Below, one piece after another: positions 1 to 2,261 of a stretch of 13,138 bases of DNA (positions are counted from its first letter, which is position 1; the number at the start of each line of letters is the position of its first letter). The stretch is from Candidatus Eiseniibacteriota bacterium. GTDB lineage: Bacteria > ARS69. A program made the position numbers and the translations under genes. The notes beneath the pieces were generated by a model. The model was not told where the DNA came from, ran no database searches, and saw only the letters and a program-made list of their open reading frames with translations. The stretch is from NCBI GenBank assembly GCA_052390515.1, contig JBQTGV010000101.1:1-13138 (forward strand). Direction: 5' to 3'.

Positions 1-87
1 CCGATCATCCCCCTTCGCCCTCCGCCGCCGCGGGGCCGCCGCGGTCGTTCCGGAGGGCAGGCTATCGGAGCCCCTCAAGGGATCATA

Positions 88-136
88 TTTTCCGGAAAAG
101 GTGGGGTCAGAGTTTCCGGAACTCACACGTGTGAGT
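88..136. repeat. cluster of short palindromes and a direct repeat at the toxin truncation point
   Basis: TTTTCCGGAAAA (88-99) is a perfect 12-bp palindrome. TTTCCGGAA occurs at 89-97 and 113-121. ACTCACACGTGTGAGT (121-136) is a perfect 16-bp palindrome. Confidence 0.6.
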
Positions 137-304
137 CGCCGTATCAAGCGGCTGCGAGGGATGCGGCAGCCCCAGTATCGCCTTCGTGTGGGCGAGATGC
201 GAGTTTTCTATGACGTCACGGAGACCGAAGTTCAGGTCCTCGCCATCGTCTCGAAGGATGAGGTCCGGGCGTGGCTCGAGCAGGAGGGCCAGCCGGAGGC
301 GTAG
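101..304 (+). pseudogene. RelE/ParE-family type II toxin, probably 5'-truncated (C-terminal ~60 aa)
   Basis: RIKRLRGMRQPQYRLRVGEMRVFYDV...VQVLAIV is a typical RelE C-terminal motif, and the gene lies directly upstream of a Phd-type antitoxin. The frame is open to the window edge, but sequence upstream of ~119 does not resemble a RelE N-terminus. Confidence 0.7.
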
Positions 305-305
305 C

Positions 306-542
306 GTGGCGCTGGCCGAGGTGAAGGACGACCTGTCACGGTATCTGCGGATGGCCGAGCAAGAGGAGATCCTGATCACCCGCCACGGCAAGCCGGCCGG
401 CGTTCTGATCGGGTTTTCCTCGGAGGAGGACTGGCTGGAGTATCGTTTGGAGAACCATCCTGAGTTCCTGGATCGGATTGCGCGCGCGCGCGTGGATCAT
501 CGTGAAGGTCGAGGTGTGAAGCTGGAGGACCTTCCGGAGTGA
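306..542 (+). CDS. Phd/YefM-family antitoxin
   Basis: VALAEVKDDLSRYLRMAEQEEILITRHGKPAGVLI matches the Phd/YefM N-terminal DNA-binding motif. GTG at 306 has GGAGG at 295-299 and follows the toxin stop at 304. Confidence 0.85.
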   Translation: MALAEVKDDLSRYLRMAEQEEILITRHGKPAGVLIGFSSEEDWLEYRLENHPEFLDRIARARVDHREGRGVKLEDLPE

Positions 543-544
543 CG

Positions 545-603
545 GGCTAACAGCGGCATGGAGCGGACGCGCTTCGCGCCGCCGCTGATGCCGAGCGTTA
601 GGA
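545..603 (+). mobile_element. attC: integron attC site (59-base element)
   Basis: R'' GGCTAAC 545-551, 5-bp spacer, L'' CATGGAGC 557-564, central palindrome, L' GCTGATG 584-590, 6-bp spacer, R' GTTAGGA 597-603. It is 59 bp long, begins 2 bp after a stop codon and ends 5 bp before the next ATG. Confidence 0.88.
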
Positions 604-608
604 CGCAT

Positions 609-1370
609 ATGACATCTATCGCAATACTTGGTGCGACCGGCAACTTGGGGCGACACGTCGCAAAACAGGCCCTCGCTCACGGTTGGGAGCTCTCGGTCGC
701 TGTCCGCAATCGTGGACGGCTTGCCCCTGATGTCGCCTCGAGCGCGCATGTAACCGATCTAGATCTCACCATGGCGACGACCGAGCAGCTTGCCTCCTTC
801 GCTGCCGGTCACGATGTCTTCGTATCGTGCGCTGGAGTTGTGACGGAAGGCGAGGCGTTCGTTCGCCTAGTGGACGGAGTTGTCACGGCGCTGGAGTCAC
901 TCCAGCCCGACAAGCGCCCAGTGTGCTGGTTTCTCGCCGGTGCGGCGCTCTTGCCGCTGGATGCAACGGGAAGGATGGGCGTGGATCTTCCCAAAGTGAG
1001 CGACACATACTGGCCCCACCGGAAGAATTACGAGCGACTGCAGCGCTCTAGCCTCGACTGGCGTCTCCTGTGCCCTGGGCCAATGGTCGAGGAACCTGCC
1101 ATTGGCTTGCAGCGGCTTCGTGTGTCTATTGACAGCTTGCCTGCTTCGCTACCAGCAATCGCTCGATCCCTGCCTTCCCTTCTGGTGCTTCCCTTGTTCG
1201 CAATGAAGATCCCGGAAATGATCATTCCATATGCCGACGCGGCTTCAGTGATCCTCGCGAATGTGGAAGCGCATGGCTCGACTACAAGGCACAGAGTCGG
1301 CGTGGCTTTGCCTATCGGCATGAAAGGCAAGAAGCAGGTATGGTCAGCCCAGCCGCGAAGTGCGCCTTGA
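609..1370 (+). CDS. NAD(P)H-binding Rossmann-fold protein (NAD-dependent epimerase/flavin reductase-like), integron gene cassette
   Basis: N-terminal IAILGATGNLG (GxxGxxG), plus FLAGAALL and SSLDWRLLCP motifs. ATG 609 lies right after attC R', where AGGA (600-603) can act as RBS. Codon third positions are visibly more A/T-rich than in the genes beyond 2.9 kb. Confidence 0.85.
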   Translation: MTSIAILGATGNLGRHVAKQALAHGWELSVAVRNRGRLAPDVASSAHVTDLDLTMATTEQLASFAAGHDVFVSCAGVVTEGEAFVRLVDGVVTALESLQPDKRPVCWFLAGAALLPLDATGRMGVDLPKVSDTYWPHRKNYERLQRSSLDWRLLCPGPMVEEPAIGLQRLRVSIDSLPASLPAIARSLPSLLVLPLFAMKIPEMIIPYADAASVILANVEAHGSTTRHRVGVALPIGMKGKKQVWSAQPRSAP

Positions 1371-1455: not shown

Positions 1456-1560
1456 ATGATCCACTGCTACCGTGAGGGTGACGAGGTGATTCGAATCATC
1501 TCCGCTCGGAAGGCGACTCGGGCGGAGCGGGAGCAGTACAGCCGTAGGTGGATGAGATGA
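1456..1560 (+). pseudogene. brnT: BrnT-family toxin, C-terminal fragment only (34 codons)
   Basis: Translates as MIHCYREGDEVIRIISARKATRAEREQYSRRWMR*, and IRIISARKAT is the BrnT signature. An in-frame TAG at 1444-1446 means the N-terminal part is missing. The stop overlaps the antitoxin start (ATGA 1557-1560). Not in the supplied ORF track. Confidence 0.8.
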
Positions 1561-1775
1561 AGAAGGAGTACGACTTCTCGAAGGCGAGACGGAATCCCTA
1601 TGCGGGCCGGCTCAAGCGGCAAGTGACCATCCGCCTGGACAACGGGACGATCGGCTATTTCAAGGAGCTGGCGGACGAGACGGGCATTCCCTATCAGACG
1701 CTGATCAACCTGTACTTGAGGGAGTGTGCGGCGAGCCGCAAGAAGCTCTCGATGAACTGGAGGCCCGTCGCTTAA
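1557..1775 (+). CDS. brnA: BrnA-family antitoxin (ribbon-helix-helix)
   Basis: MKKEYDFSKARRNPY...KRQVTIRLD...YFK...GIPYQTLINLYLR is a characteristic BrnA/CopG-like sequence. It is coupled to the BrnT remnant by an ATGA overlap. Confidence 0.88.
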   Translation: MKKEYDFSKARRNPYAGRLKRQVTIRLDNGTIGYFKELADETGIPYQTLINLYLRECAASRKKLSMNWRPVA

Positions 1776-1824
1776 CGTCGGCCGGCGGCCAAACACGTAT
1801 GAGGCCCCCGGTGGTCAATAGGTA

Positions 1825-2261
1825 GTTGTTCCCCTCCGTCCGCCTGGTCGGCGTCACCGCTGGGGATCGGCTGGTCGTCCCGACTTCGTTTCCCACGGGT
1901 GCAGACGGTCCACCCTGCACCAAACACGTATCGAGGGTCGCGGCCCGGCGTCGCCGGTCCGAGCGGAGCAGGTTCACTCCGCAGCCCTAGAACTCATGGG
2001 TGCCCTCGTTCCGGCTCACTCACGACGGACGGGCTGAGCGCGCTGCTCTCCAGTTGGTCTCGAGCTCGGCGAGGGGCAGGACATCTCGCGTCGATCCGAA
2101 TCTTTGGGGAGCGGGACGGTCGTCCGTTCAAACGGTGCAGGATCCCTGGGCTTCGCTCCGGCAATCACCGGGGTCTTCGCCCCAGACGCTTCCTCTCGGT
2201 TGCCACACGAGCTTCTCCGTCAGCGGGTCCCAGTTAGACAAAGGGCTCGACCGTCCCCTCC
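1825..2261 (-). ncRNA. putative bridge/seek RNA of the IS1111-type element (three guide loops); boundaries approximate
   Basis: Inverted-repeat pairs at 2113-2122/2248-2257 (perfect 10 bp), 2001-2008/2070-2078 and 1898-1904/1915-1921. The internal 12-mer at 1920-1931 is identical to the element end/junction at 1789-1800. The motif CGAGC-N8/9-AACTGG occurs twice. Confidence 0.65.

Follow-up and report, generated by a model that had tools for sequence, protein, structure and literature searches.

A truncated IS1111-type insertion sequence at an integron attC site and a conserved third loop in the probable guide RNA of its lineage

The founding papers on attC-seeking elements of the IS1111 family are said to be those of Tetu & Holmes 2008 and Post & Hall 2009. 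That IS1111-family elements target attC has long been known (PMC11187229, in the part bearing on this group), and for the IS1111-attC group, to which ISPst6, ISKpn4, ISPa21 and ISPa25 belong, the same part of that paper (Siddiquee et al. 2024) describes a seekRNA derived from the non-coding region (NCR), which contains matches to the top and the bottom strand of the attC target, the former lying 5' of the latter. It also gives terminal extensions of 7 bp on the left and 3 bp on the right beyond the repeats. The relevant passages of PMC3001079 place IS1111-attC elements near the 5' end of attC and antisense to the cassettes, and a portion of PMC13604230 gives the ISKpn4 target as CGGCTTGAA followed by CGAATTGTTAG, with the insertion between them several bases inside the arm. 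According to the section of Durrant et al. (PMC11208160) on this family, many IS1111 bridge RNAs hold their donor-binding bases in a multiloop. Since RNA-guided attC targeting by IS1111-type elements (the ISKpn4/ISPst6 seekRNA) is already published, the principle that we discuss here is not new.

We analyzed a 13,138-nt stretch of Candidatus Eiseniibacteriota DNA (contig JBQTGV010000101.1; hereafter the window, at its full length), which retains, at 2334-1792 (minus strand), the 3' stump of an insertion sequence of the IS110 family and IS1111 type. Like the IS1111-attC group, its lineage consists of elements with an RNA-guided DEDD transposase, in which the guide RNA follows tnp and the inverted repeats are sub-terminal, and in the window as well as in one plasmid relative (L091) the insertion lies close to the 5' end of attC in an orientation antisense to the cassettes. 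There are also clear differences: 1) unlike ISKpn4, which inserts between GAA and CGAATTGTTAG, the present lineage inserts at the R-box complement GTT, giving N/TT/AGGC; 2) the non-coding region is ~500 nt long with three loops, as against the 82-nt short and 151-nt long RNAs of ISKpn4; 3) the terminal extensions, ~11 and 8 nt, are longer than the 7 and 3 nt given for IS1111 in the cited part of PMC11187229. A tblastn search of 72,556 plasmids with the transposase of the intact relative L013 yielded 45 records at E<=1e-20, and Klebsiella is absent among the ten genera listed for these matches (nine further genera being unlisted), which hints at a clade separate from the ISKpn4 group. Compared with IS621, as described in the pertinent parts of PMC11208160 and Hiraizumi et al. 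2026 (PMC13626964), the predicted guide RNA likewise offers one arm per DNA strand flanking a dinucleotide core, and its short core-side matches (TT-GAT in loop A, TT-TGG in module 3) recall the IS621 handshake guides; it departs from IS621 in its location at the 3' end, its reversed order of arms, the placement of the donor strands in a multiloop and the presence of three loops where IS621 has two. The literature covered, which lay outside supplements, the founding papers and ISfinder, yielded no description of the third loop or of this lineage's targeting.

On the plus strand, positions 1-1780 of the window resemble an integron cassette array of toxin-antitoxin and small enzyme genes, with attC traits at 545-601 and 1366-1428 between the toxin-antitoxin cassettes. 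The features of the array are as follows.

2-542, plus strand: ParE-like/Phd pair
545-601: attC-like site between cassettes
558-1370, plus strand: gene for an NAD(P)H-binding protein
1366-1428: second attC-like site, with GAC/GTC in place of AAC/GTT
1456-1557, plus strand: BrnT, N-terminally truncated, of which the last 34 residues remain
1548-1775, plus strand: BrnA, whole
1770-1776, plus strand: perfect RYYYAAC (GCTTAAC), overlapping the BrnA stop codon
1776-1794, plus strand: surviving half of the attC that was hit, read from the window sequence with the target anatomy taken from relatives
1788-1794, plus strand: R''-like box GCCAAAC, split by insertion after 1791

The insertion sequence tail occupies the 560-base gap between this array on one side and chromosomal genes on the other, those past ~2880 being ordinary ones (an FG-GAP protein, an ECF sigma factor and a TPR kinase). 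It entered the R'' box of the attC behind the BrnA cassette, antisense to the cassettes, and its right end abuts GCCA/AA, 14 nt past the BrnA stop. An ORF at 2343-2816 on the plus strand has no start, adjoins the truncated element and runs on as a spurious frame antisense to the FG-GAP gene; a Pfam search gave no match for it, and it is probably the remnant of a gene broken when the rest of the insertion sequence and attC were lost. It may resemble regulators with AlbA_2 and HATPase_c_4 domains.

What survives of the element's coding end and right end is given below, all on the minus strand.

2263-2334: last 23 transposase codons, LGRAVFHMLKRRKAFDMNAFLAS, and stop, from translation, tblastn and alignment to L013
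1792-1818: right end, consisting of TTGACCACC, then GGGGGCCTCA, ATACGTG and the core TT, common to five copies in the same metagenome-assembled genome (MAG) and to relatives
1809-1800: sub-terminal inverted repeat GGGGGCCTCA, of which the window has kept the right copy alone
1800-1794: ATACGTG of the right end
1793-1792: core TT

The transposase upstream of these 23 codons is lost, with a junction to unrelated DNA at ~2335-2342, so that the window holds the 23-residue tail and no DEDD transposase. This tail aligns to the C-terminus of L013, with a weak tblastn value (E 0.75), and tblastn against the 72,556 plasmids likewise gave weak matches in 7 records (E 0.2-2); all five of the seven that have an annotated feature are IS110-family transposases, and in H2, the one annotated record that was opened, the match sits at the C-terminal end of the transposase gene. 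From the stop codon (2263) to the right end (1792) there follow ~470 nt of non-coding DNA homologous to the guide-RNA region of the relatives. Neither PF01548 nor PF02371 matches anywhere in the MAG (223 contigs, 95% complete), and no transposase or left end is assembled in these 223 contigs; lacking both, the window copy is an immobile, dead stump, and the functions assigned below refer to its intact relatives. At least five tail copies are present in the MAG (C101, C120 at 87% identity, C66, C221 and C188), with differing points of truncation, which for two copies coincide with a contig end, and a left end is missing from all of them. All six clear right-end junctions in the MAG continue with (A/G/T)G(G/A)C. 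The tail repeat was absent by DNA search from 11 other genomes of the family, was not found as a pattern in genome contigs and gave one chance match by blastn against plasmids; a tRNA scan returned none.

The lineage can be followed through L007, on a Candidatus Manganitrophus plasmid, in which a frameshifted IS110-family gene precedes a non-coding region homologous to that of the window, the two having in common a pair of xCTAACTGG boxes, GTGTTTGGTGCAGG, AAGTCGG and a terminal GGCCTTATAAGTGTT. With the L007 protein as query, we kept 80 loci of 540 tblastn-confirmed stretches; their transposases are 61-74% identical and come from many phyla, Candidatus Eisenbacteria included, and the intact protein of L013 has matches to PF01548, PF02371 and NF033542 ('IS110 family RNA-guided transposase'). 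Two relatives from cultured hosts, L091 on Alteromonas macleodii pTE101a and L090 on a Vibrio campbellii plasmid, have transposases ~55-57% identical to that of L013 and the same three-module tail. The 47 complete elements, with both ends, define the ends, sub-terminal repeats, core and target: the left end reads TT-GATACT-NNN-T(G/A)AGGCCYCC and the right end TTGACA..GG(G/A)GGCCTYA-TAAGTG-TT, with sub-terminal inverted repeats TRAGGCCYCC / GGRGGCCTYA whose length lies in the range of 7-17 bp. A simple inverted-repeat search in L007 missed these repeats, which became clear once many elements were compared. Counting the TT core, the left extension (TTGATACTNNN) measures ~11 nt and the right one (TAAGTGTT) 8 nt, and TT is assigned as the core from same-genome copies in which the element is common and the outside flanks differ. 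A Pseudomonas aeruginosa plasmid record (H23) was considered as a known IS1111-attC member and rejected, since it lies outside any integron.

In the element's sense, the flank consensus is ...CCGTC-N-GCTGCA-N5 before the core TT and AGGC(G) after it; the target in relatives is the 3' arm plus GTTRRRY of the folded attC bottom strand. Many insertion sites form hairpins of the attC kind, in which a T and a C stay unpaired in the insertion-proximal arm: GTY occurs at -18..-12 in 28 of the 36 sites with full flanks vs. 38 of 220 control windows, and the arm is paired with upstream sequence in 18/36 sites vs. 40/220 controls. As the extrahelical bases lie in the 3' arm, the sense strand of the element is the attC bottom strand and insertion occurs at the R'' box. 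This agrees with the position of the right end in the window and with L091, where the element runs antisense to each of the five small genes beside it. By splitting attC sites, such elements freeze cassette arrays or cut them short, an example being the end of the array in the window. Some insertions (L063, L054, L066 and L007) lie in AT-rich DNA that forms no hairpin and match loop A poorly; these may be off-target events or decayed sites. A separate peculiarity concerns one Nitrospiraceae MAG, the source of L072, L073 and L075, where the last 244 bp of the element (past the GTTTCTAGG strand to the right end) form a tandem repeat in L073 and are displaced by ~1.1 kb in L072, which suggests recombination at the internal end-like strand.

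The ~470-nt region contains three modules, loop A, loop B and module 3, which emerged from aligning 28 sequences. Besides the window and the C120 copy, these comprise 26 of the 47 complete relatives, selected by a filter on length and pattern; the near-duplicates L010, L019 and L022 were left out, and so were L031 and L033, which have no AACTGG box. All of the following lie on the minus strand.

2113-2258: loop A (module 1), from alignment and covariation
2258-2248 with 2123-2113: outer stem of loop A
2243-2233: 5' arm of loop A, CTTTGTCTAAC, with AA at 2235-2234
2139-2126: 3' arm of loop A, TGCACCG-TT-TGAAC, separated from the 5' arm by a long variable insert
2001-2083: loop B (module 2), a paralogous internal loop, from alignment with compensatory pairs
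within 2001-2083: stems of loop B, CCCCTCG/CGAGGG, CCG/CGG and CTC/GAG
2061-2053: 5' arm of loop B, G-AGACC-AA-C
2051-2032: hairpin after the 5' arm of loop B
2031-2018: 3' arm of loop B, CGTCCGTCGTGAGT
1899-1999: module 3, putative donor-binding strands of a multiloop, from a shuffle test against the element ends
1999-1988: CCATGAGTTC-TA, antisense to the left end of relatives
1936-1920: CCTCGATACGTG-TT-TGG, a sense copy of the element's own right end and core
1920-1899: hairpin of module 3
1875-1881: 3' half of a helix pairing with 2083-2077 and enclosing modules 2 and 3 (RNAalifold)

The structure rests on covariation, since a single-sequence fold of 2262-1869 was no more stable than shuffles (z = 0.24; 57 of 100 shuffles equalled it) and Rfam returned no match, either at the gathering threshold or at E<=10. 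Of the ten pairs in the outer stem of loop A, nine have changed on both sides (27 sequences); in loop B, 5/11 pairs are compensatory (28 sequences), two of them occurring, for example, as UA 12 / CG 11 / GC 3; and in the enclosing helix, the RNAalifold pairs 248-254/652-658 have changed on both sides in up to 9 sequences. In 41 places among the 80 loci, a pattern scan located both boxes at constant positions downstream of the transposase gene, and we therefore take the likeness of the loop A and loop B arms to be more than chance; among the 47 complete elements, the AACTGG-like box was not seen in L017, L031, L033, L054 and L066. The initial annotation is borne out in part: the region is the guide (bridge/seek) RNA part of an attC-seeking insertion sequence, and relatives do insert at attC-like hairpins. 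Its left arms of loop A (CGAGCCCTTTGTCTAACTGG, 2248-2229) and loop B (CGAGCTCGAGACCAACTGG, 2067-2049) and its right arm of loop A (CTGCACCGTT, 2140-2131) lie on the minus strand where it had placed them, GTCTAAC (2239-2233, minus) is indeed a perfect RYYYAAC, and GACCAAC (2059-2053, minus) is one with a single mismatch. Its suggestion that the arm order is swapped relative to the donor loop was not upheld, for in all three loops the antisense (..AA) arm is 5' and the sense (..TT) arm 3'.

In the family, loop A has a 5' strand N3-CG(T/C)CTAAC, a variable insert and a 3' strand N6-TT-GATT, and its 5' arm CGYCTAA is antisense to TT-AGRCG. This agrees with the earlier reading of the arm as an R''-type box, as the antisense of the core TT and the right flank AGRC. 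Over 37 insertions, the 5' arm forms 113 of 222 possible Watson-Crick matches with the six right-flank bases vs. a shuffle mean of 93.3, a value reached in 0/5000 shuffles; among sites with both flanks, complementarity holds between arm position -3 and flank +3 in 19/29 (p=0.001) and between arm -2 and flank +2 in 17/29 (p=0.007), in exact antiparallel register. Individual elements illustrate this, with GCACAA in loop A facing TT-GTGC in L030 and GTATAA facing TT-ATAC in L053. Across 35 distinct arm pairs, the positions that loop A conserves by information content are C-G-Y-C-T-A-A. The match between the 3' arm and the left flank was not significant (44/150 vs. 37.3, p=0.10), and 11 of the 37 insertions fit loop A poorly (<=3/6 with wobble). 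In the window, loop A predicts AGAC, and the C120 copy sits at AGACAC. The two arms of the window do spell the composite GTCT-AA-CGGTGC, as had been proposed; the MAG contains no such site, and its 12 matches at <=2 mismatches include the loop itself and look random. The covariation with the right flank supports loop A as the putative target-binding loop reading an R''-type box.

Module 3 is the second place where a predicted guide follows its DNA partner, here at both ends of the element. Its family pattern is a ATNNGTTTC-TA strand antisense to the left end GATACTNNAT, and a CCTC(G)ATA(N)GTG-TT-TGG strand that repeats the right end in sense orientation, followed by the core and by three bases that resemble the right flank; in the window, the internal ATACGTG (1930-1924) equals the terminal ATACGTG (1800-1794), with a rare C in both. 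The right-end copy matches the right end at 411/470 positions vs. 395.2, and the antisense strand matches the left end at 321/598 vs. 281.6, each reached in 0/5000 shuffles, figures that are inflated by shared descent since both partners lie in one element. Module 3 is thus shown, by its covariation with both element ends, to be the probable donor-binding loop.

Based on these data, we surmise with a probability of about 0.72 that the locus is a decayed RNA-guided element of the IS1111 type, in which loop A serves as the target loop, module 3 as the donor loop and loop B not as a second attC guide. In intact members, the TT core of the insertion falls exactly on the GTT that belongs to the R''-box complement in the bottom strand of attC, with the element antisense to the cassettes, and the ~500-nt 3' non-coding region contains three loops of one topology. 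The 5' arm of loop A, CGYCTAA, would pair with the top strand TT-AGRCG and so reads like an R'' box, and its 3' arm, N6-TT-GAT, may pair with the left flank, the core and the first left-end bases, the flank part of this match being non-significant. Module 3 would bind the donor via both element ends, and loop B, nested in the donor multiloop, keeps only the core-proximal CTAA...TTGA signature.

The family scaffold of loop B is like that of loop A (GAGCC ... CTAAC-TGG [hairpin] CC ... TTGA(A/T)T-NGG-CGG), and we conclude that loop B is a conserved paralogue of the target loop. Its arm conserves CTAA alone, the three preceding positions carrying ~0.05-0.18 bit over the 35 distinct arm pairs. There are nonetheless observations on account of which loop B may read something after all: 1) one clade (L056, L059, L075 and L082) keeps loop B as TGATACTAA; 2) in L026 and L030, the two bases beside AA have changed alike in loops A and B (60 vs. 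55.4, p=0.011), and the flank of L030 (GT) agrees with the parallel change in both loops; 3) in L091, loops A and B have nearly identical 3' arms, which share CAGCCACTACG(C)TTTGA. A three-loop bridge RNA, with loop B as a working programmable reader in which CTAA/TTGA reads TT-AG and the three hypervariable bases read a further partner, is an unlikely reading. That partner could belong to the folded attC, as its second R box or arm, or be another DNA molecule of the synapse. When we looked for a partner of the loop B 5' arm in the element plus 150-nt flanks, we found the arm itself alone, plus the left end in one clade, and for the 3' arm (all but L039) nothing consistent; an unbiased 5-mer scan of flanks vs. 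the alignment had too little power at 20 sequences. A role as scaffold or recombinase-docking arm, or as a relaxed reader of TT-AG, seems most likely for loop B.

The initial annotation had instead proposed that loops A and B are alternative target guides, by which one element could enter two attC variants. The shared scaffold and topology, the retention in both loops of CTAA (antisense of TT-AG), the parallel arm changes in L026 and L030 and the near-identical 3' arms in L091 would all fit this proposal, and yet the variable bases of loop B show no correspondence with the insertion sites, as evidenced by: 1) matching of its 5' arm to the right flanks at chance (73/222 vs. 74.2, p=0.62, 37 insertions), and of its 3' arm to the left flank likewise (44/150 vs. 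41.5, p=0.31); 2) two marginal and mutually inconsistent matches in the 108 tests of a position-wise scan; 3) a better fit of loop B in just two (L057 and L079) of the 11 insertions that are poor for loop A; 4) no exact match to the 14-nt composite loop-B sites in any of three host genomes, in which one-mismatch matches are as frequent as those of a reversed-pattern control. The dual-guide proposal is accordingly not supported, and we consider it improbable.

A different division of labor, in which loop B is the ancestral or working short seekRNA-like loop that reads TT-AG and loop A a later accessory duplicate that sharpens the choice, draws on the length of loop B (~85-100 nt, close to the 82-96-nt seekRNAs in the cited part of PMC11187229), on its place beside the donor strands inside one closing helix and on the restriction of attC conservation to the R box. 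It has to contend with the seven conserved guide bases of loop A that follow the flanks and with four base pairs alone being insufficient for the observed site specificity, and we hold it to be unlikely.

It could also be argued that the internal end copies are alternative ends at the DNA level, like the A'/B' boxes of ISPpu9, which move transposase-less modules, and not RNA guides. The precedent in the relevant part of PMC12288879, the transposase-less tail copies in the MAG and the tandem 244-bp tail segment in L073 speak for this reading. Against it, the MAG copies break off at differing points and all are without a left end, the loop that carries the internal copy has conserved helices, and an antisense partner of the left end is found at the matching place, as fits a donor-binding loop; we regard it as very improbable. 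The likeness to ISPpu9/MITEPpu9, as portrayed in that part of the paper, lies in solo copies of a transposase-less RNA module in one genome, one of them here with a short end fragment of tnp; unlike MITEPpu9, the solo copies here are without a left end and truncated at different points, and for these reasons look like decay products rather than mobile modules. Finally, a structured RNA cassette linked to attC or a group IIC-attC intron remnant, to which the position in a cassette array antisense to the cassettes would lend itself (as for group IIC-attC introns in the pertinent passages of PMC3001079), has next to no probability given the base-for-base homology to the region behind an IS110-family tnp in at least 40 loci and the lack of an Rfam intron match, and both the intron and the non-coding cassette were dropped as candidates after the homology of L007 with its IS110-family gene was seen.

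Returning to the RNA-guided element with loop A as its target loop, the window copy itself is of low interest and loop B of moderate interest. What is new lies in 1) a lineage, present in many phyla and on plasmids of cultured Alteromonas and Vibrio, that inserts at the R-box GTT itself; 2) the mapping of its target and donor guide segments by covariation; 3) a third loop, conserved and of the target-loop type, that is left unexplained by the two-loop bridge-RNA model. If loop B only serves as scaffold, the finding is an ordinary one; if it reads DNA, it matters for understanding and engineering bridge recombinases; and if the three-loop reading were true, it would imply three-site synapsis or dual specificity, unforeseen by the two-loop IS621 model.

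Some further observations were made in the MAG. Two right-end footprints of 30-40 nt, C36:3664-3693 and C120:5054-5085 (L002 2986-3017), lie at GTT/AGGC sites, and the complement of the C120 footprint supplies ATG and the first codons (MRPPVGVV...) of a 147-residue ORF that looks HNH-like by eye. An integron-integrase-like gene at C66:1068-2015 on the minus strand (L092/L093) covers positions 1-315 of the TIGR02249 model in three pieces of 63, 166.5 and 152 bits, each below the 265-bit cut-off. The open-frame length of the middle piece differs (348 vs. 359 aa), so that this piece is perhaps in another frame and the gene perhaps frameshifted. A remnant of the insertion sequence tail, C66:13-262, lies ~800 bp past the 3' end of this integrase-like gene.
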